In this document: piece after piece, positions 13,911-48,300 of the stretch
Numbering within the stretch: position 1 is the stretch's first letter
Layout: every line of letters starts with the position of its first letter
From: Callorhinchus milii
Taxonomy: Eukaryota
Reading direction: 5' to 3'
Length of the DNA stretch: 64,000 nt
Assembly (NCBI RefSeq): GCF_018977255.1
Contig: NW_024704754.1
Location: 4,712,001 to 4,776,000 of the forward strand
Program-made: the position numbers and the translations under genes
The notes under the pieces: generated by a model
Database searches by the model: none
What the model was told of the DNA's origin: nothing
Seen by the model: the letters and a program-made list of their open reading frames with translations, nothing else

Positions 13911-15119
13911 ATACTTCGTCCTAATTACACAATCAACCTTTGTAACTTGAAACTCATCAAGTGGCTAACAAAAGGATTAAAACTGAAACGCTGCTGAATT
14001 CACTCGGGACAATTTTGACTTATTAAAAATGTGTATAACAAGTGAAAAATCTGATTACAGGTTTTAAAGATTGGCCACGGGGCACCAAATAACTCAATTA
14101 ACCACGAAGGGTTTGTAAAACTGAGCCAAAATCACCCGCAGGGAAAGGTAGGAGAAACAAGGCAAACAAACGAGCCTAAAATTACCAGGAAAGTTAATTT
14201 GATGCCATAACAGTCAGGCACAGTTTCCCTGCGGGATTCTCCACAAGAAAATACAAATAAACCCTTCAGAATCCTCCGCCTGTTAAGAAAGTGCAAACGC
14301 ACGGGCTTTTACTTCTTATTCTTACTATCCTTTAATAATAATCCACCAGTTTCATGGAAGACACAGAAGAAAGCCATCTCGTCCCTTTTCTGCCCTCAAC
14401 GACAAAATATTTTTTTTTAACAACAACGACAACAACGCAGAGAACAGATCTGGAATAATAATAATAATAATAATCCTTGCATTTGATATAGCGCTTTTCA
14501 CGTCGAGAGGACGTCCCAAAGCGCTTCACAGAATAGACTGTAAAGTGAATTGAATTTAATTATAATAATAATAATAATAATTCCACACAAAGCAACGGCC
14601 CAACACTGACCAGACAGCCCACCCCCACCCTCAGCATCTACTATTAACGCTATTTATAATATTTATGGTAATATTTATGATAATAATACTTTGTTTATGA
14701 GGCGTTCGCTGTGACAACAACAACCCGCGCACTGGATGTTGCGCGTCGTCGCGTCGGTCGAGACGCCTCTCAACGCGCCTTCACGGGATATCACAGTGCG
14801 TTTTGTGGGCGAAACGATTAAATAATAAGAATTATAATTTTCTGTAGAGCTCTTTAATAATAATAACAACAACAACAGCAATACGGTCTACGGGAGTTCA
14901 GAGCTTTTGGGGCCGAGGATTAAACGCGGGTCGGACACTGAGGCCGATTCCTGTTGTGACCTTAAACCGACTGAGGGGGGAAACTCAAACCCCGTGTCCC
15001 CGGGGGCCGAGAGCCGGGGCCGCCCGCACGGGGAGGCCCGAAACCCAACGGGGAGCCGGGGGTGACGGGGCAGCGGAAGCCGGGCCGGCGGGAGGCCCAC
15101 CGGGAGACCGGACACTTAC

Positions 15120-15310
15120 GGTCCTGATGCGGGTGATGAAGAAGCCGCTGCGTGTCCTACGGGAGCAGCGGGGTGCACTGAGCGCGGGACGGGAGCGGGT
15201 GGGGCTGGAGCATGGTGCGGCGGAGCCGGGAGCCGGGGCTCAGGCCGCCGGGGAGGAGAGGGAGAGGAGCCTCCGGGACCGCTCCAACCCCCGTCGCGGG
15301 TGAGGCTCTC
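15120..15310 (-). other. KIAA1191: Probable non-coding first exon of KIAA1191 in a CpG island
   Basis: Consensus donor ACC|GTAAGT at 15120/15119 on the minus strand. The region is CpG-rich, with an NRF1-like TGCGCACGCGC at 15311-15332 just upstream. The TSS position is approximate. Confidence 0.6.
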
Positions 15311-15349
15311 TGCGCACGCGCGCGCGCGCGCACTCTCTCGCGCAGCCAC

Positions 15350-15665
15350 CGTTACTCCCTCCCCACGTGACCGGTACTGCCGCCTCTCCCACGTGACGGT
15401 TACGCCCTCTCCCACGTGACCGGCACCGCCCCCGTTACCGCCTCTCCCACGTGTCGGTTACTCCCTCCCCACGTGATCGGCACTGCCCCCGTTACCGCCT
15501 CTCCCACGTGATGGTTACTCCCCCCCACGTGACGGTTACTCCTTTCCCCACGTGACCGGCACGCCCCCCCCTCCCCCCCCCCGCGTTACCGCCTCTCCCA
15601 CGTGACGGTTACTCCCTTCCGCACGTGACAGTTACTCCCTTCCGCACGTGACAGTTACTCCCCTC
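15350..15665. repeat. Promoter minisatellite with 11 CACGTG E-boxes (KIAA1191 promoter)
   Basis: Degenerate units of about 21-50 bp, cctctcCCACGTGACggttactc; 11 CACGTG counted between 15364 and 15650. Confidence 0.9.
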
Positions 15666-15930
15666 CCGGCGACCATTACTCCCCTCCCCATCGCTTGGGT
15701 ACCGTTGACAGTCGGAGTGAGCCGCAGAGCCCCGGCGCTGGTGGAGAGTGTCCCAGAGCGCTGGACAGCGGCGGAGCACGAGGCTGAGCCAGGGGGGGGG
15801 GGCGGGGGGCCGGGGGGCGGGGGGCCGGGGGGCGGGGGAGGGGAGAGGGAGGGGAGGGGGTGTGAGACCGTAACCACAGTCCAAGAGGAAGATCTTCAGA
15901 CGCGACCTGAAGATGAGGAAGGAGAGGGCG

Positions 15931-16031
15931 GTGTGTGTGCACGTGTGCGCGCGTGTGCACGTGTGTGCGCGTACACGTGTGTGCGCGTGTACACGTGTGT
16001 GTGCACGTGTGTGCGTGTGCACATGTGTGCG
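15931..16031. repeat. (GT/GC/AC) alternating purine-pyrimidine repeat containing further CACGTG
   Basis: gtgtgtgtgcacgtgtgcgcgcgtgtgcacgtg...; Z-DNA-prone alternation. Confidence 0.85.
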
Positions 16032-16628
16032 CAAGGCCTGGTGGGTCCGCATTCAGCTGCCTGCGACCGGGGGTGGGGGGTGTGCGCGAGCGCCGGGTCA
16101 CTGACTGTCGGTGTCCGGCTGCCGGCCCCTGGGCCCGCGGTGACAGTCTCCCACACTCAATGACTGGCCGACTCACTCGCATCCTCCCTGACTGACTCAC
16201 TGATTTATTCCGGTGATGTTCGTTTACTCTCACGTCTGTCCCTCAGACCTTTGTAACACTTTCTTTATATTTGCAGGAAGGGGGGTCTCCTTTTTCTGGT
16301 TTGATAACAACAACAAAGTTACATTTATGCTCCCGAGGTGTTGGGACTGTTAAGGGTTTATGTCTGAGCCGGGGGTTGCAATCAAGAGGGCTGGAGAGGA
16401 GGGTTGGCTGAAAGCGTGGGTAAAAGGAGGAGCGTTTCACCCACAAAATCTACAGGCAATTCGCTTTACAGTATATTCTGTGAAGCGCTTTGAGACGTCT
16501 CAAAGACCTGATATCAAATGCAAGGATTATTATAATTATCAAGTCTTGAGACGGGTTAAGTTTTAGAGTAACGTGTGTGCGCGTGCGTGTGTGTGTTTTT
16601 TTTTAAAAAAAGTTTACCCAGCAAATAA

Positions 16629-22554: not shown

Positions 22555-24868
22555 TTAAGATGTTTCCATCTCATCTTTTGCCAAGGATTTCAAAAATGCA
22601 GCATGCTCATCTGGGTGAATTCTTTTGTAGGCTTCAATTTTTTTCCTAATTTGATTTGGTGTGTCCTGGTAATAGTTCTTCTCGTCTCTTGCCATAGCCT
22701 AAATGAAAAAGAAGATATAAATGACAATCTTACAGGCCTAAGCTTGTGAAAATTGAATGAACGGGTAAATGTACAACATGATGTGGCTCAAAGGTTCCCA
22801 GGGTCAAATTCACAATAGCTAAACAACCCTTTAAGATTCTGTTTGAATTGTATCTTGTCAAAGGACTATCTCTACTGAAAATTCACATAAAAGCTATTGT
22901 TTTCTAAATATTTCATACCTTGTAATTGTCCTTGTAGTTTGTGATCATGTGCTCAACATAATCAATCAGATCTCTGGAGAGTGAAGTCTTTTTCTCTTCT
23001 GGGAGGTTAGCCTCTGCTTCTAGCTCTGCAGAGTAATGGTAAATGTCATTGTGTTATGTGGACAACAACTTCAATTTCACTCTACAAAGTTAACAGGAGA
23101 TTTCTTCCAGAACAACAAATTACATTTGTTTTAACACCTTTCACGTTGGGTGGACGTCCCAAGAGGCTGGACAGTCGGATTTGGATCCGAAGAAATGGTT
23201 GTGATTTGGAGGGGTGGAGGGCAGGGGTAGGACGATAAAAGATGTGGTCGAATAGGAGGGTATTTAGATGTGCCTTGAAGGAGGTAAGGGAGAGCGGAAG
23301 GCAAAGGGACTATGGAATGGAGTTCCAAAGGGTAGGGTGGGGGCAGAGATGCTGAAGGCTTGACCGCCGATGGTGGGATGGGCCGGGCGGGGTCATAGAC
23401 ACTTGGAATGCGTGAGGGACCAGTGATGGCTTTTTAAAGAAGTTGTACAACCAAAAGTGAAAGACATTGCAAACTTTCCCTGAGAACTGCATACAAACCG
23501 TTAATGACGTAAGGCTTTAATATAATGGTTTCCTCTCTGGCAGAGGCCATTCCCTGTATCTGTAAGAGAGGTTGAAATTTTGATCAATATAAGAATGACT
23601 CATTCTTCTTGAGTTGGCCCTAGTTGTACACAGTACACACAAGGACAACAATAATTGCAACACTTTTTGATAAGTCTTTCTTTCAGATTTCCCCCCCCAC
23701 CAAAAAAAAAGATGGAAATAACGAATGGTCAATCAGCAATACTAGACTGTGATACAGATAACTTTAGATCATCCGTGCTGCAGAGATTTCAATCACTTAT
23801 CAATAACACAACCAGCTAACAGTACATACCTTGCCTTTCTTGATGGGAAGCGTCTTGTTCGGGTCCATTGCCAAACCCATTTGAGCTAAATTCTGAGCAG
23901 CCGATTTATTCTGGTCCCACGCTCTCCTTATCTGATCGCTAACAGACATAATTATCAAATTAAAGTCAGTTGAGTGGGAACAGTAATGATTTAGGGTCAG
24001 TCAGAATAGTAATAATTCTGTAGGAATAATGATAATAATTTGGTCACTCAATCCACAACGGTTTGTGAGACGTTGTGCACAATTGGCTGCCGCTTTTCGC
24101 CCACAAAACATATAGCCACTGCACTTTACAGCATATCCTGTGAAGCGCAATGTATGTAGTTTTAGCGGGTTGGACTCCAGCAGTTACCCCCAACGCACAC
24201 TCTGGGGTCCTCTTGCCAACCTGCGACTAATACTCTCCGGAATTACGTCAGCAGGATGCCTCTCTTCAGGGAGAGAGAGCCCGTTCCATTCCATTCCAAC
24301 AGTCTATCTCTGGGCGTTTCCGGGTGTGGGTGGGCAAGCGTGGAATTCATTCCCAGTTGGGTTTGGATGCTCTTTAAGCGCGGCGACGGGTTTCCGCAGG
24401 TGTCAAGGCACCCGGCTGGCCCCCAAAAAAATCCGTGAAGCGCTTTGAGGTGTCTCAGCGGCGCGGTGAGGCGTTGGTGGCAAATAAAAGACAGCAACGA
24501 TAACTCGGTCAGGCTGTCGGTGGGGGGCGCGGGCCGCTGGGCGGGCAATTGGCTGCCGCATTCCTCCCACAAACCGTGACAGTCGGTTCACCTCTCGCAG
24601 TATATTCCGTGGAGCGCTTTGAGACGTCTCGAAGGCGCGAATGAGGCCCTGAGGCAAATGCACGGATTATGATTATGATTAATATTATTATATTAAACGC
24701 AGCAGCAGCAGCAGCAGCAGCAGGAGGAGGAGGAGGAGGAGGAGGAGGAGGACAGACTCACCATTCGATCCGCGGGGCCGCTTTCTTGTTCATCCGTCGC
24801 CTGATCTTTTTTCGGTCGGCCTCGTAGTTGAACTTCTTCCTCCTGTTCTTACCCTTGGCTTTGGGCAT
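22555..24868 (-). CDS. NOP16: Nucleolar protein 16 (175 aa)
   Basis: Exons 24868-24762, 23938-23830, 23559-23499, 23025-22919, 22698-22555 (TAA). Peptides MPKAKGKNRRKKFNY, LEAEANLPE..LSRDLIDYV and AMARDEKNYYQDTP. AATAAA on the minus strand at 22526-22531. Confidence 0.95.
24699..24752. repeat. (CAG)n(GAG)n compound trinucleotide repeat in NOP16 intron 1
   Basis: gcagcagcag...gaggaggag directly downstream of the exon-1 donor. Confidence 0.9.
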
Positions 24869-25303
24869 CTTTACCGGGGCGGCGGCGGAGAGAGATGGGG
24901 GGAGAGAGGCCTAACCCCGGGGAGAGAGGGAGAGAGGAGCCTGGGGGAGAGAGGCCTAACCCCGGGGAGAGAGGAGCCTGGGGGAGAGGCCTAACCCCGG
25001 GGAGAGAGAGAGAGAGGAGCCTGGGGGAGAGAGGCCTAACCCCGGGGAGAGAGGGAGAGAGGAGCCTGGGGGAGAGAGGCCTAACCCCGGGGAGAGAGGG
25101 AGAGAGGAGCCTGGGGGAGAGAGGCCTAACCCCGGGGAGAGAGAGAGAGGGAGAGACCGAGGCCGAGGATGAAACGTGCGGAGCCCTCGGGGCCGCCCTT
25201 TGACCTCTGACACTGTGACCGTCGCGGCCTGTGATTGGTCCCCGCTCGGCGCCTGCGCACCGACCCACTTGACTGACTGACTGACTGACTGACGGGAAAC
25301 AAG
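24869..25303. promoter_or_regulatory. NOP16/HIGD2A bidirectional CpG-island promoter
   Basis: Divergent ATGs 435 bp apart. Inverted CCAAT (ATTGG, about 25234), NRF1-like GCGCCTGCGCA (25249-25259), and YY1 motif CAAGATGGCGGC (25300-25311) over the HIGD2A ATG. Confidence 0.8.
24890..25152. repeat. 45-bp purine-rich minisatellite (6 units) between NOP16 and HIGD2A
   Basis: The core ggcctaaccccgggga recurs at about 24911, 24956, 24991, 25036, 25081 and 25126. Confidence 0.92.
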
Positions 25304-25519
25304 ATGGCGGCGCCCGTCCGGGAGGAGGTGTCGCTCAGCAAACCGCCCGTCATCGAGGGCTTCCATCCCGCCCCCAGGCCCCGGGAGGAGAGCTTCAGGG
25401 ACAAGTTCATCAGGAAGACCAGCGAGAACCCGTTCGTGCCCCTGGGTGAGTGACTGACTGACCCCGGGAGGCCAGAGACGGCGCTGTGGTTGATGATGAC
25501 CTTGGCCTCTCGCCTCCAG

Positions 25520-25557
<38 letters not shown>

Positions 25558-26452
25558 CCTTTGCATTTGATATAGCGCTTTTCACGTCGGGAGGACGTCC
25601 CAAAGCGCTTCACAGAACACACTGTAAAGTGAGTTGACTGTATGTTTGTGGGCGAACGCGGCAGCCAATTGCGCACAGTAATGTCCCACACACAGTCGTG
25701 GATTGAAAATGACCAATTTATTATTGTTTTTGGTTTTGGAGGGATTATTATTAGGCTCTGTGTGGAGTAAGGAAACTTGCCCAAGGTTTCGCCCTCTGCC
25801 TGGAATTGAACTCAGGTCTCTCACTTGCAAAGCGAGTGCTCTAACCACTGAGCTACAGGACTCCACTGCAACAATCCTTGCAGTTCATACAGTGCCTTAT
25901 CGCGTCTTCGAGACACTTTAGAGCGCTTCACAGAATATACGGTAAAGCGAATTGACTGTATATTTTGTGGGTAAAATATTTGTTGCTGTTGACTGCTGTG
26001 CACAAAACACAGTCACTGCACTTTCCAGGAACTGATGCCCTTCAACACGTTTTGACATTATCGGTGCAATGCCAAATGCAAAGGTTTTTATCATTTGTAT
26101 TAATTTTGTCAAAATGTCTTGAGGCACTTCAAGGGTAAACTCCCTTCTCTTTTCCAATAATGTAATGCTTCACTCAACAAATGGCACTCTGAATCTGCTG
26201 AAACATTGTGATCTGGAAAAGTGCTGCTGTAATTGCGAGGGGGGAAGACTCTGAATTATTTGGCTAACGCATATTTTCTGTATTTCAGGAATGTTAGGCA
26301 CAGCTGGTGCTCTGACCTACGGTCTAATCGCTTTTAACCATGGCAAGACTCGACATTCACAACTTTCCATGCGAGCACGTATCTTTGCCCAAGGTTTCAC
26401 CATTGTTGCTATTGTTGTGGGTGTGGTAGCCACAACTTTAAAGCCCAAATAA
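25304..26452 (+). CDS. HIGD2A: HIG1 domain family member 2A (101 aa)
   Basis: Exons 25304-25445 and 26289-26452 (TAA). FRDKFIRKTSENPFVPLG-MLGTAGALTYGL..SQLSMRARIFAQGFT contains the type-2 QxxxRxRxxxQ motif. AATAAA at 26714-26719. Confidence 0.95.
25520..25864 (-). mobile_element. Young full-length SINE in the HIGD2A intron
   Basis: Reverse complement of the short-subfamily SINE, with a long pure (AAT)n tail. Confidence 0.92.
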
Positions 26453-41300: not shown

Positions 41301-42421
41301 AGGAAACTGCTGAAAATTGAGCATTGCCTCACTCAGCGCGCATTTCCGCATACTCGACACGGCTGATAAGAGAGCAAATAGTTAACCCATAAACTGGCAT
41401 TACACAAACTACAGGAACACACACACATTTCCCATTTCCTGTGGAGAAGAAAAGACTTTACATTAGACTGAAAACAAGAGATTAAAAACCACCGATAAAG
41501 GAATTATTTCACACAGTTTCACTGACAGAAGCACAATGAAACTTCTCTCCACTATCAGCCAGGGGAGGGAAGGGATAGAGACGAGCGAAACCCTTTATAG
41601 ATGGAGTTGTCTAGCCAGAAACAGGGCTAAGTGGCCCGGCTGCTCAGGTCACAACCAGAAGGCACAGCCCCAGGGTGAGACCGGGGACAAAGTGCTGCAG
41701 GCGGGGAGGGGAGCAAAGGGGGAGACAGGGTATTGCAATCTGCTGCCACATTTTCACCCAAGTGACAATCAATCCACCTTACAGTACATATTCTCTGAAT
41801 CACTTCGAGAAGTCTCAATAAGACTTGATAAGGCTCTTTCTCAAAGGTAAGGATTGTTATTATTTCATTGCTGCCATATTCACTTCAACAGTCACTACAC
41901 GACACGGTAAAAGCCTGCGAAGCGCTTTGATGCGTCTCGACGACGTGATGAGGCGCTGTATCATTAATGCAGGGATTATTATTACAATTATTATTATTAT
42001 AATACTTGCATTTGTATTATTAATAGCAGTAGCATTAGGGTGAGCGGGTCAGGCCAGTGACTGGGGCTGACAGCGCCGGGGAGGGGAGGAGAGGGGAGGG
42101 GTGTCGAGGGCGCGGAGGCCTGTCAGACGTGGTCCCGGGGGGTGGTGGTGGTGGGGGTGGGGGTGTGTGTGTGTGGGGTGAGTGTGAAAGGAAAGAGCCT
42201 GTCCCGGTTTCCCATAGGCCCCGCTCCCCACCTTCAGCGCCGCCCGAGTGCTGTATCACGGCGGCCGGCACCTCGCCGCCGTCCAGAATGCTGAAGCCCT
42301 CGTCGTTCTCGATGCCGGCGATCTCGCTCTCCTGCTGCGCCAGGAAGGCGGCGGCCGGGTCCTCCTCCGCGCTGCCCGCCGTGCCGTTGTCCGAGGAGAA
42401 GAAACCAATGTCGTCCGCCAT
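29350..42421 (-). CDS. CLTB: Clathrin light chain B (212 aa, or 230 aa with the neuronal exon)
   Basis: Exons 42421-42232, 37493-37447, 36433-36316, 35858-35747, 32565-32512 (alternative), 29521-29350 (TAG). Consensus segment EEDPAAAFLAQQESEIAGIEND and N-terminus MADDIGFFSS. Lies between HIGD2A and FAF2 as CLTB does in human. AATAAA (minus) at 28051-28056. Confidence 0.92.
32512..32565 (-). CDS. CLTB: CLTB neuron-specific 54-nt cassette exon (RIADQAFYKQSCADVIGYV)
   Basis: Symmetric phase-2 exon, ctag|GATC...ACGT|gtatgt. It matches the 18-aa brain insert of clathrin light chains. Confidence 0.9.
34885..35165 (-). mobile_element. Unclassified poly(A)-tailed retroelement 3' end
   Basis: Homologous to 24150-24431(+), 48790-49062(+), 47295-47394(+), 2259-2370(-) and 43763-44120(-, interrupted). 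Most copies end cacccagctgacc-An. Confidence 0.7.
39725..40320 (-). mobile_element. CR1-clade LINE 3' end in CLTB intron 1
   Basis: ORF2 C-terminus KGFDR..LFPL..TRGHSLK..RRNFFTQRVVQIWNDLP and an 8-mer (TCTATGAA)n tail. Smaller CR1 pieces at about 31369-31550, 49500-49720 and 62755-62865. Confidence 0.9.
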
Positions 42422-42490
42422 CTTGTTGCGCTCCTGCCACCCGCCAGCACCGGAAGACGCGCGCGACGTCAGCTCTTTTAACGGCCCGGC

Positions 42491-42927
42491 GTTACGTGGT
42501 GCGAGTCCCCGGACAGACCCAGCCTGCCCTTGTCACGTGGTGCGAGGCCCCCCCCCCACACACACACACACGGCCAGCCTGCCCTTGTCACGTGGTGCGA
42601 GTCCCCCCCCACACACACACGGCCAGCCTGCCCTTGTCACGTGGTGCGAGTCCCCCCACACACGGCCAGCCTGCCCTTGTCACGTGGTGCGAGTCCCCCC
42701 ACACACACGGCCAGCCTGCCCTTGTCACGTGGTGCGAGTCCCCCCCCACACACGGCCAGCCTGCCCTTGTCACGTGGTGCGAGTCCCCCCACACACACAC
42801 ACACGGCCAGCCTGCCCTTGTCACGTGGTGCGAGTCCCCCACCACACACGGCCAGCCTGCCCTTGTCACGTGGTGCGAGTCCCCCCCCCACACACGGCCA
42901 GCCTGCCCTTGTCACGTGGTGCGAGTC

Positions 42928-42958
<31 letters not shown>

Positions 42959-43005
42959 ACCACCCACACAGCTCTGTATCACATGGTGCCTCCAGCGTCA
43001 CGTGG
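42491..43005. repeat. CLTB promoter minisatellite with 9 tandem GTCACGTGG E-box units plus one outlying copy
   Basis: Near-invariant core cggccagcctgcccttGTCACGTGGtgcgagt with a variable poly-C/(CA)n linker, period about 43-55 bp. It starts about 70-100 bp upstream of the ATG. Confidence 0.95.
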
Positions 43006-43519: not shown

Positions 43520-45339
43520 ACACAAGATCTTTGCTTCACACACTATATATATATAAATACACACAAGCGTTTTGCCCACAAAATACACAATCAATCCACA
43601 TTACAGTAAATCCTGTGAAACGTTTGAGACGTCTTTATGCTATATCAAATGTAAGTATTATAAGGATTATTATATATGTATATATACTTTATAGCCTTCA
43701 TCCACAATATATACAGTCACACTGGTGTATCCTGTGAAGCACTTTGAGATATCTTGAAGACTTTTTTCTGGTCAACCGGGTGTCTGACCCAAGCGAAAAC
43801 CCATCACATCTTGATGGCGTGAAAGCTGCAAGGATTATTATGTACAGTACATACACATTACATATTATATCTCATAACCACATCTCATACCTTCAGACCT
43901 GAATAGCATGAACCAAACTACATAATAGCAGCTGCTCAGGACATTTGGGAAACCACTCATCCAGTGATAGCACAACATGCATTTTGGTTTCAAGATATAC
44001 CCTGGCTCTCTTCATAACTGAATGAGGTTGGCAAGAGCCAAGGCTTGGGACCCCAGTGTGTTTTGGGATAACTGCTGGAGTCTGACCAGCTAAAACCACA
44101 TAGCTTTCCATTGATATCACTGCTGTCAGCAGGGGTGCATTACAGTGTTGGTCTCAGTAGCCTGACTAGAGGGGGGTGTGGGGTATCAGTTAGCATTGCT
44201 GAATACAATACATTTCCTCTCCTGTCAAGTCTGTCTGTCAAGGATAGGATTAGGTTCCATTGTAACGTCCTCACAAGCCAATAACCCACTTGCATTCATT
44301 CATGCATGTGCCGAAAGGTTATCAACCAGAAACATTAACTCATTTTCCTCTCTCCATAGATGCTGCCTGACCTGCTTTATGTTCCCAGCGACTTGTTTTT
44401 ATTTCAGATTTTCAGCATCTGCAGTAATTTTGCCCTTTTGTTTCCCCACACATTCACTCACTGTCCCGGTTCCAACACAATGAAACCTGGGCATGAATCT
44501 TGTTCGGACTATGTTGTTGTGTCCTGACTGCAAACCGCATGTACCCCTCACCTACCCCTCCCTCCCTCCCTCTCTCTCCCCTCCCGCACATCTGCTGACA
44601 GATGTGCTCCTGCTTCATTTGGTCCAGTTACTTTTGGTTGAGCGAGATCAAGTTTAGTTGAGTCAGGGTGGTTCGGTTAAGGTTAGGAGAGTGAGCTGAG
44701 GTCAGTCAGGATTAGGATAGTTAGTTGAGTTGGGGGGTGGGGGAGCGGGTGTGGGTTACGATAGTTAATAATAATCCTTACATTTGCTGCGGCGCCTTAT
44801 GTTTTTGCTTCGAGACGCCTCAAAGCGCTTCTCACGGGTTATACGGAGAAGGGAATCGACTGTGTGTTTTGTGGGGGAGACAGTGAGTGAGTGAGTGAGT
44901 GAGAGGGTGGGGGTGAGGGTGGGGTGGGGGGCAGTTGAGGTGAAGGTTGGGGAGAGTTTGCTGAGGGGGTTATTAGGACAGTTGGTTGATGTGAGAGTTG
45001 AGGTAGTGAGTGGAGTGTTGTTGTTGTTGTTGGGGGGGGGGGGGGGGAGGCGGTCTGTGGCTGGAGCCGAGGAGGAGGCGGAGGTTCCCGTGGCCTGAGG
45101 CGAGCGGCAGGAGCGCGGGAGGCCTGACTCAGGCCTGAAGCCTGCGTCTGGATTAGCGGGTGCGACCGAGGGGGAGAGGCGGAGAGGAGGAGGAGGAGGA
45201 AAGGAAGAGGTGGGGTTGTGGAGGCGGGTCGCGGGGAGTGACGGGCAGCGCAGGGCGGGGAGGTGGGGAGGGAAGGGGAGGGGAGGGAGGGAGAGGCCGA
45301 GGCGGTGACTTCCGCACAGGCCCGAAGCCAGCGGGCAAG

Positions 45340-48300
45340 ATGGCGGCGCCTGGGCAGCGGGAGGAGGATCTGAGCCAAGAGCAGACAGAGAAGCTCCTCC
45401 AGTTCCAGGTACCGCCAGTCCAGTCAGTCACCCCCCGCCTCACCCCCCCCCATACCCCCCCCACACAACCCCGCCTCACCCCCCCCCCATACCCCCCCCA
45501 CACAACCCCCGCCTCACCCCCACCCCATACCCCCCCCACACAACCCCCGCCTCACCCACACACACCCCTCACCCCCCCCCCCATACCCCCCCCCCCCCCC
45601 GCCTCACCCCCACCCCTCCCCCCCCACCCCCCACCCCCCACACACCCCCCCCCCCCCCCACCCCCCCCACACCCCCCCCCCCCCCCCACACCCCCCCCCC
45701 CACCCCCCCACACCCCACCCCATACCCCCCACACACCCCCACCCCCACAACCCCCCCTCACCCCCACCCATAACCCCCCCCACACAACCCCGCCTCACCC
45801 AACACACCCCTCACCCCCCCCCCCCCCCCGCCTCACACCCACACACAACCTCACCCCCACCACCCCCACCTCCCACCCCCACCCACACCCCCCCCGCCTC
45901 ACCCCACCCCCCACACACACCCCCCGCCTCACCCCCACCCCATACCCCTCACCCCCCCCATACCCCCACCCCCCCACACCCCCCACACACACCCCACCCC
46001 CCACCTCACACCCACACCCCATCGCCTCACCCCCCCACCCGCCTCACACCCCCCCACCCGCCTCACCCACACACACCCCCTGCCTCACACCCCCCCACCC
46101 GCCTCACCCACACCCCCCACCCCACACACCCCCCGCACCTCACGCCTGGTTTACACCTGGTCACCTCTTGTTTTTACACCTGGTGATCTTATGCCAAACT
46201 CCTGACTTTAACCCCCTCTCCCCCCCCCCCCCCACCCCACTCCCCCTCCCCCCCCCCACTCCCCGCTGCCTCCTTCCCGGTTACGTCCTGCTTCACAAAC
46301 CGGTTAGAATAAAATGACAGTTAAACCCCCCCCTCCTCCTCTCCCCTCTCCTCTCCCCCTCCCCGGCGGCATTTGACGCAGCGCCTCGATCGCGTCTTCG
46401 AGACGCGTCTCCCAAGCTCTTCGCGGGATTACTCGCTGTAACGCGGGTTGACCGCGCGTGCGTGTGCGCGCGCGCGCGGGTGCGTTTCGCGGGCGGAACG
46501 CGGCAGCCGATCCGCCCGCAGCCGTGTCCCCGCAGACAGTCGTGCGTTGAAGTGACCATATTATTATTATTATTATTAGTGTTTTTTTTAAAAAAAAGAA
46601 TGATTACCCCCCGCCCCGGAAAAGAGATCTTGGAAATCCACCTCCTGGTTACCTCCTGCTCTTCCACGTGTGGAATCACGGTTTCTGTGTGCTGTGTGTG
46701 TGTGCTGCTGTATGTAGGAAACGTTTTTTTTCTGATGCTGGTAAAGGTACTTATTAATTGTTTGGGAAACTGTTAATCGTTCATTCTTTCGGATCTTGAA
46801 ACGAGGACATTGTTGGTGTTTGTGGGTCGCTGCTGTGTTCGATTGTCCGCCGCGTTTCGCCCACAAACTATACAGTCAAAGCACTTTACAATATATTCTG
46901 TGAAGCCGCCTTGAGACGTCTGAAAGTCGTGATAAGGCACTATATCAAATGCAAGGATTATTATTATGACCTTTTCCAGATGTCAAATGCGAGTGGCAAA
47001 TCTGGCGTAAACTTGTAGAAACCTGGTATATTCTAACTTGCTGTTTATTTTAAGTCGTAAAGAAAGAGAATTTAGTTTGTTGGAAATAAATGCAACTCCC
47101 TCTGATCCGTTGCCTGCTTTAGGACCTAACTGGTATCGAGTCAATGGACCAGTGCCGTCAAACATTGGAACAACACCATTGGAACATTGAGGTAAAGACC
47201 ATTTTTTTTTTAGTAATTCACTTTAAGCAAAACTTTTGTGACAGTGGCAAACCCGATGAATATCATCAACAATCACTCTTGTTTTAAGTCATTGTATGTA
47301 GGTGGGATGCCTGGAATTCTCAGTTTGGTTTGGATACTCTGAAGCATGGTAATGGGTTTTCGCACGTGTCAGACACCCAGCTGACCAAAAAAAAGTGTGG
47401 GCTAGAAATTCCAGCAGACATTGCCAAGACGTAGTGTCGGGGGTGCTTTTTTATGCCTGGAATTTTTTTTTACTTTATTGAATGTAATATTGTGAGAAAC
47501 TGATCCTTTTCGACTTGTTGTTTTACTCACAATTCCCTCTTTCTCATTGAACTTTCAGGCAGCTGTTCAGGATAGACTGAACGAGCAAGAAGGGGTCCCC
47601 AGTGTCTTCAACCCACCTTCCTCTCGTCCTCTTCAAGTCCACACAGCGGACCACAGGATCTATAGCTATGTTGTTTCAAGACCCCAGCCTAGGGTGAATA
47701 TACAGTATATTCTGTGAAGTTCTTTGAGACGTCTTAAAGACGTGATAAGGCGCTATATCAAATGCAAGGATTATTTATATTATAGGGTGAGGAAAGCACT
47801 AGACAGGCTGGTTTGTAAGCCTTCACTGTTTGTGTCAGTGAAAACAGCATACCAGAGTGGCATCTGCTTTCAAAGCAAAGAGCTTTGAGATGTCTCAACA
47901 ATGTGATAAGCCGCTACATCAAATGCAAGGATTATTATTATGTTATCATAAATCATGTTGGACATTGATTTGGATCGTGTTGCCACTGGTTTGATGACTT
48001 GTGCCGATTCGCTCTATATTGTGAGGCTTTGACTTGCAATGTCCAGGGGCATCACCTCTCAAATCTTAATCATTTGAGGTGCTTTTTGACGGAATCCTTT
48101 TACCGAGCAAGACTCTCTTTTTGCGCGTTCTTTGGGTGCAAGGATAGGTGTCAAATTCAAGATATTTTTCAATAAGTTTATTACTTTCATCCTCAAAGAG
48201 GTGTTTGTGTGTGCGCGTGTGTTGTGTTTGTGTGCATGGGTGTTGTGTGTGTGGGTGTTGTGTGTGAGTGTGGGTGTTTTGTGTGTAGTTGTAACCCAGA

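Follow-up and report, generated by a model that had tools for sequence, protein, structure and literature searches.

In the genome of Callorhinchus milii, repeat copies lying beside promoters have gained G and C at the expense of A and T, and this promoter-side footprint is genome-wide and real. It can be seen in a stretch of 64,000 nucleotides (positions 4712001–4776000 of contig C13 in an assembly of 992 Mb; hereafter the window), in which a strongly altered copy of a short interspersed element (SINE) lies about 1 kb into intron 1 of FAF2. We consider GC-biased gene conversion (gBGC) at meiotic recombination hotspots to be the likely cause of this excess of weak-to-strong (W>S; A or T to G or C) changes.

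A G/C-shifted SINE copy beside the FAF2 promoter

The features around the focal copy are as follows.

46369–46572, minus strand: focal SINE copy, G/C-shifted against the consensus, consisting of the 3′ body and tail of an element whose family has a tRNA-Ala head
46453–46484, unstranded: short CG/TG-rich, microsatellite-like stretch in the focal copy, in place of a short TA run of the consensus
45340–45408, plus strand: FAF2 first coding exon, whose start motif AAGATGGCGGCG was used as the promoter marker, about 1.0–1.2 kb upstream of the focal copy
47123–47191, plus strand: FAF2 (ETEA) exon 2, encoding a UBA-like domain (PDB 2dam, E 3e-10; PF22566 and PF14555)
44751–46750, unstranded: CpG-rich promoter region of FAF2, broken by a C-rich low-complexity tract (45430–46140)

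The sequence matches of exon 2 confirm the identity of FAF2. Exon 1 has no Pfam match, and we take it to belong to this gene from its sequence and the known N-terminus of FAF2.

The far-copy consensus was built from 434 copies, each more than 2 kb from the promoter motif. Against the consensus, the focal copy shows 41 differences, comprising 32 W>S changes (18 T>C, 11 A>G, and 3 T>G), 3 strong-to-weak (S>W) changes, and 6 GC-neutral changes. Twenty-one of the 32 W>S changes now lie within a CpG, and the copy contains 36 CpGs in 204 bp, compared with 11 in the consensus core. In the filtered columns, W>S changes occurred at 24 of 66 sites and S>W changes at 2 of 58, where far copies change at rates of 0.060 and 0.183, respectively (binomial p 2e-13 and 8e-4), placing the copy fourth among 707 in W>S rank. 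The shift is mostly CpG-creating in clean context, where 9 of 17 CpG-creating transitions had occurred as opposed to 1 of 14 other transitions. The preliminary description of this DNA had stated that the differences are mainly A>G and T>C and that many of them make CpGs; this agrees with our counts, and all four of the motif changes that it quoted can be read in the sequence.

The shifted copy is present in separately sequenced DNA as well, since a contig from run X1 spans 46280–46551 with 3 differing letters and 8 gaps. The low-depth contigs of four runs (X1–X4) have one listed difference within the focal copy.

Genome-wide gradient of W>S changes at promoters

Promoter loci were picked by a start-codon motif rather than by repeat content, because this avoids choosing promoters by the GC of the repeats themselves. 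The motif, which we presume to be YY1-like, has 180 matches in the genome compared with 1 for a reversed control, and a variant motif has 129 compared with 11. Loci of 10 kb were taken for 84 of 100 listed matches of the first motif (14 tandem-array matches and 2 in the window were left out) and for 60 of 100 listed matches of the variant, and 200 kb beside the window was included. Removal of three duplicates left 141 loci, 114 of which have a CpG island at the motif. Filtering by length and family reduced the 1335 profile matches to 960, and 88 young copies were kept apart. The analysis rests on 133 columns, with 31 variable ones dropped, and a site entered the counts only where the consensus letter was kept on both sides of it. 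The main contrast is between old copies at <1 kb (105, near) and at ≥2 kb (315, far) from the motif at 112 loci, and the intervals in parentheses below were obtained by bootstrapping over loci. The trend was the same with promoters measured by flanking CpG observed/expected, but this measure is partly circular and motif distance was used instead.

Two observations were made on the loci themselves. Near-identical 10-kb duplicated promoter loci lie 30–50 kb apart on C3 (L053/L054) and C14 (L104/L105), representing either recent duplication or haplotype redundancy. The motif CAAGATGGCGGCG forms short tandem arrays at C3:76279298–76279445 (5 copies) and C8:7818543–7818814 (9 copies).

The near/far ratio was 4.99 (3.68–7.0) for CpG-creating transitions and 1.57 (1.19–2.04) for all non-CpG W>S changes, among which the other, non-CpG-creating W>S transitions gave 1.48 (1.13–1.92) and the transversions 1.82 (1.30–2.62). 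The ratio for S>W changes was 0.58 (0.43–0.76). CpG decay was also lower near promoters, at 0.44 (0.34–0.55); this ratio serves as a proxy for hypomethylation, though gBGC also lowers apparent decay. The equilibrium GC content calculated from non-CpG changes (GC*) was 0.67 (0.59–0.74) near promoters and 0.43 (0.39–0.46) far from them. The W>S excess therefore persists with CpG-prone sites excluded, which was one of the checks suggested in the preliminary description. These values correspond to an apparent bias strength, B, of 0.99 (0.62–1.37), and a W>S/S>W split of about 1.58/0.58 is what B = 1 predicts. The preliminary description was right about the direction of the drift; it had left unseparated the CpG-creating transitions, which are favoured about two-fold over other W>S changes.

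The shift is limited to <1 kb, fades further out, and is present upstream as well as downstream of the start. Paired within loci, a near excess was found at 36 of 51 loci (Wilcoxon p 5e-5). Thirty-five of the 40 most shifted copies are in motif loci, and 23 of these 35 lie within 1.25 kb of the motif, compared with 142 of 550 copies overall. Among the near copies, 24 of 67 have no CpG-creating change. No correlation was seen between the W>S rate near promoters and flanking GC (rho −0.06, p 0.62, 60 loci). In the young subfamily, the W>S:S>W counts were 26:13 near and 32:53 far (p 0.004), and a W>S shift was also detected in a second repeat family (p 0.04) and in a third (p 0.001). The signal is thus present in old and young subfamilies, mostly at different loci, in this one species. 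The hottest young copy (L060:5280–5594), about 430 bp from a promoter motif, has 9/44 CpG-creating and 4/82 other W>S changes and no S>W change.

At the 27 motif loci that have no CpG island, GC* was 0.41 at <500 bp (10 copies) and 0.63 at 500–1000 bp (13 copies). The latter value is probably due to nearby islands, which makes these loci an imperfect negative control.

Controls for artefacts

The same pattern might be produced by a GC-rich subfamily, by ancestral CpGs masked in a majority consensus, by loss of methylation alone, or by misalignment into GC-rich flanks. Some of the data lean this way: the 31 dropped columns had to be removed because they differ among subfamilies, and the 25 most shifted copies have 795 shared derived states where 691 are expected. 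These 25 copies, however, are 69% identical among themselves and 79% identical to the consensus. The GC-rich subfamily, which had been named in the preliminary description as a possible source, was rejected on these identities. Elsewhere in the genome, the sequence closest to the focal copy among 40 scored of 1172 candidates reaches 84% over 104 bp. All 27 TpG/CpA columns gained CG more often near promoters; in the 16 columns that have no mirror-decay signal, the gain occurred at 137/988 sites near and 68/3204 far. Far copies transplanted into promoter flanks give a GC* of 0.45, and stricter column sets leave B at 1.0–2.0.

Simulated copies were run through the same pipeline as the real ones. 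With unmethylated copies only, the simulated GC* was 0.40 (observed 0.67) and the CpG-creating rate 0.049 (observed 0.139), so that loss of methylation alone falls short of the footprint. The artefact readings are largely refuted by these results, and we regard it as highly improbable that any of them accounts for the footprint. In the simulations, B = 1 fits the non-CpG rates and the CpG-creating rate needs B = 3.

Editing of the SINE RNA by ADAR before insertion would explain why A>G is frequent among the differences. On the SINE sense strand, however, T>C changes are no rarer than A>G changes (110/697 vs 72/586 and 75/1072 vs 50/869), and transversions are raised as well. The strand symmetry refutes this reading, to which we assign virtually no probability.

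Recombination and the alternatives to gBGC

Recombination is known to be higher at chromosome ends and on small chromosomes. The promoter shift scales with the corresponding proxies, namely scaffold size and distance to the scaffold end. Near-promoter GC* was 0.49 for 35 loci in the interior of the five large scaffolds. It reached 0.79 for 9 loci lying no more than 10 Mb from an end of these scaffolds and 0.73 for 65 loci on scaffolds of 15–31 Mb (permutation p 0.0005 across groups); far GC* moves little across the groups, from 0.39 to 0.44. Further, non-CpG W>S changes numbered 50/264 in copy halves whose partner half was hot for CpG creation, compared with 61/938 where the partner half was cold.

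Unmethylated, transcribed promoters could have a local bias in mutation or repair that supplies extra T>C and A>G changes, especially TpG>CpG via glycosylase repair of T:G mismatches, with no meiotic drive. The excess is indeed greatest in CpG-creating transitions, as this explanation would have it. On the other hand, non-CpG W>S transversions are up 1.8-fold as GC-neutral changes drop, and transcription-strand asymmetry is not clear (A>G 71/607, T>C 57/572). The dependence of the shift on scaffold size and end distance also disagrees with such a bias; CpG decay is equal within and beyond 5 Mb of the ends (0.154 and 0.159). We judge this explanation to be unlikely, while noting that several of the points given below favour it.

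Selection for CpG or G/C at island edges, keeping promoters unmethylated or nucleosome-poor, is compatible with a shift that is limited to about 1 kb around promoters and adds CpGs, and with the smaller number of GC-neutral changes near promoters, as under constraint. Against selection, CpG loss by transversion is alike near and far (54/577 vs 186/1832), CpG-creating C<->G changes are not raised (3/253 vs 10/800, both small counts), and non-CpG W>S changes rise too. The dependence on chromosomal position is not expected from promoter function either. We consider selection very unlikely to have produced the shift.

Several points weigh against gBGC as the cause. The near/far ratio of GC-neutral changes was 0.65 (0.46–0.86), where gBGC predicts 1; as these changes fall too, part of the S>W drop may reflect younger copies or a lower mutation rate. 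S>W changes near promoters were not reduced in the second family (0.121 near vs 0.106 far) or the third (0.081 vs 0.071). In hot copy halves they numbered 13/266 as opposed to 42/998 in cold ones, so that they are no lower there, and strong gBGC should suppress them. The unsuppressed S>W changes and the fall of GC-neutral changes are compatible with a W>S bias in mutation or repair. In humans, moreover, hypermutation at the transcription start site (TSS) with mutation biases of its own is documented (PMC13712754). No single simulated setting fitted all substitution classes together, and changes were polarised on the SINE consensus, not on an outgroup. We defined the scaffold groups with the main result already in hand, and the ends of scaffolds need not be telomeres. 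In the focal copy itself, the strict non-CpG signal is weak (2/18; transitions 1/14).

With these points taken into account, gBGC at promoter hotspots remains the reading that we favour, and the process may be pictured as follows. Breaks would form at CpG islands, and heteroduplex mismatches would be repaired toward G/C with an apparent B of about 1 on average and a higher one in a hot minority of copies. Repair of T:G mismatches would be most efficient where these lie in CpG context, as suggested by the B of about 3 needed in simulation; TDG/MBD4-type glycosylases are plausible agents of such repair. Low methylation at the probably unmethylated promoters would then preserve the new CpGs. With PRDM9 probably weak or non-functional, recombination would fall back on promoters by default. 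The preliminary description had proposed these promoters as long-lived break hotspots. The W>S excess, the absence of a responsible subfamily, and the recombination proxies give this proposal partial support: the promoters are probable break hotspots, and these may be long-lived.

State of PRDM9

Nine small contigs (C668, C737, C936, C969, C1096, C1143, C1226, C1362, and C1419) gave Pfam matches to SSXRD-like and PR exons and also carry a KRAB-like exon and variable zinc fingers; the PRDM9 exons are collinear on C969 and C1096. These genes form a tandem array, and about half of the finger diversity is at positions −1, 3, and 6. An intact multi-copy PRDM9 was rejected as a host gene: its PR exon is 96–100% identical to lamprey proteins in all 25 of 25 matches, and neither the host SINE nor two other host repeats were found on the nine contigs. 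From these two results, the sequences identify the intact multi-copy PRDM9 in the assembly as lamprey DNA. Sequence of runs X1–X4 gave no coverage of its SSXRD exon, which in itself proves nothing. An intron repeat of the lamprey array is found on about 20 further small contigs, which may be lamprey too. A Pfam search of the genome for KRAB gave nothing above the cut-off, and KRAB-like exons surfaced only with protein queries or motifs.

A shark PRDM9 query led to two host-type loci, C84:80534–83836 and C40:273603–276839. Both carry host SINEs and an SSXRD-like segment, which Pfam did not recognise in either locus, and PR exon 1 of the host type has exactly two copies in the assembly, 86% identical to each other. 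In the C84 copy, a stretch of exon 1 is frameshifted and exon 2 has an in-frame stop at its end; in the C40 copy, exon 1 carries a frameshift. In neither copy is there an AG at the acceptor position expected from shark proteins. A pattern permitting intact or broken ends of exon 2 matched solely the broken C84 copy. This reading of the host-type genes covers the SSXRD-like segments and the PR exons; further candidate pieces are an exon at C40:252.5 kb and a KRAB-like match on C1061. A zf-CW search gave six matches, none of them identified as ZCWPW1 or ZCWPW2.

The elephant-shark gene has been described as a KRAB-SET protein with a finger diversity of 0.314 and SSXRD reported missing, and as the only ortholog without detected testis expression (PMC5519329). 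Two considerations count against a loss: the lesions may stem from errors in the assembly, or the assembly may lack an intact copy, and the gene has been classed as complete (PMC8892340). Salmonids keep one intact PRDM9 among many broken paralogs (PMC11703093), which calls for caution in deducing a loss from two copies. Promoter hotspots are also possible with PRDM9 retained, as the default hotspots of mammals can coexist with it (PMC11161765). Overall, the evidence leans towards a PRDM9 that is weak or non-functional in this fish. The premise of the preliminary description that the lineage does without PRDM9 gains from the disrupted appearance of both host-type copies and is contradicted by the published classification as complete.

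A more far-reaching scenario is that functional PRDM9 has been lost, a further loss among vertebrates that the literature has overlooked and that the lamprey arrays mask in the assembly; that the promoters are stable, still active hotspots; that conversion is about three times stronger on CpG-creating transitions; and that islands therefore expand outward and take in adjacent repeats. We put this forward as a tentative possibility about which we are rather doubtful.

Other features of the window

The window holds four CpG-rich promoter regions, and further repeat copies lie beside them as follows.

44766–44881, minus strand: SINE copy upstream of FAF2, W>S 14 vs S>W 4
41870–41984, plus strand: SINE copy in the intron adjoining the 42000–43000 island, W>S 13 vs S>W 4
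24500–24675, plus strand: SINE copy beside the bidirectional island at 24750–25500, W>S 29 vs S>W 3
14715–14816, minus strand: SINE copy at the edge of the 14750–16250 island, W>S 18 vs S>W 0
24153–24429, plus strand: interspersed repeat of the second family, about 280 bp with an A-rich end, inserted in a SINE
25539–25863, minus strand: young full-length SINE, about 96% like its subfamily, adjoining the same island as 24500–24675 and used as an age control

The first four copies are those in which the preliminary description had reported the same drift, and the counts agree with it. It had also placed G/C drift at the promoter end of the element at about 24150–24431; read by eye, the G/C gains of this element are mainly in its promoter-side half. 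The promoter-near copy at 46817–46966 is barely altered.

The genes at the other islands are named provisionally. CLTB, for the 42000–43000 island, is presumed from the preliminary description, and NOP16 and HIGD2A, at the 24750–25500 island, are presumed names; Pfam searches with the short first exons of these three genes, as with FAF2 exon 1, gave no confirmation.

The SINE at 24029–24148 and from 24433 onward is split by the 280-bp second-family element, and a duplication of about 10 bp together with the A-rich end is consistent with target-primed insertion. GC-rich minisatellites occur in three of the four promoter regions (42563–42936, 15348–15667, and 24898–25153). Two of them are built of CACGTG units of 45 and 23 bp, a motif that we take to be E-box-like. 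The tract at 45430–46140 that opens FAF2 intron 1 is a degenerate C-rich repeat of about 700 bp with a GC skew of −0.96, and its G-rich complementary strand could, judging from its composition, form G-quadruplexes or R-loops.

Relation to known systems

The promoter footprint resembles that of dog CpG islands after the loss of PRDM9, which show low CpG decay and raised W>S change and GC*, with W>S 4-fold over the genome-wide level (PMC4350167). Unlike the dog study, ours compares repeat copies with their consensus and finds a 1.6-fold excess over flanks for non-CpG W>S changes and a 5-fold one for CpG-creating changes. There is also a likeness to the default hotspots of 52 mammals, where CpG-masked GC*, with B taken as a logit difference, has a narrow peak at promoter-like hypomethylated sites (PMC11161765). 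That work used measured double-strand-break hotspots of the mouse knockout, whereas our promoters are defined by a motif; it excludes CpG sites, and hence reports no CpG-creating excess.

A GC peak at vertebrate TSSs has been attributed to past recombination, with a gain of GC at TSSs in canids (PMC11323403, PMC13712754), and the peak was noted in shark and lamprey genes (PMC11323403). The shark data concern standing GC content, whereas ours concern the direction of substitution, which is shifted even in a young SINE subfamily. In humans and apes, as here, CpG-context transitions are the most biased class (10.1101/2020.09.25.313411). That study rests on genome-wide allele frequencies, in contrast to the fixed, promoter-local differences and the approximately three-fold contrast in B described here.

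The SINE itself resembles CmiSINE/SacSINE1-CM of Callorhinchus milii, which has a tRNA-Ala head and subfamilies of different age and comprises several families with a common 3′ end of about 160 bp; the match is by description only (PMC5499810). The main text of that paper does not contain the word CpG. ARAGORN identified tRNA-Ala at the heads of the full-length copies in the window; the focal copy is headless.

We found no report of promoter gBGC in cartilaginous fish in a literature search whose reach was thin for subscription papers. The process itself is known from dogs and birds; the present analysis adds an independent sample of promoters, the excess in CpG context, its dependence on chromosomal position, and a view of how PRDM9 stands.

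For whoever scores PRDM9 in this assembly, the lamprey contigs are a practical trap. The loss of PRDM9, if true, would add a data point to analyses of PRDM9/ZCWPW co-loss. The CpG-specific excess amounts to a testable statement on the growth of CpG islands. Hundreds of thousands of SINE copies offer a datable read-out of the recombination landscape from a single genome, in a lineage for which we found no map. If gBGC is indeed the cause, promoter hotspots with this bias reach cartilaginous fish, which would support an ancient, recombination-built GC peak at the starts of vertebrate genes.

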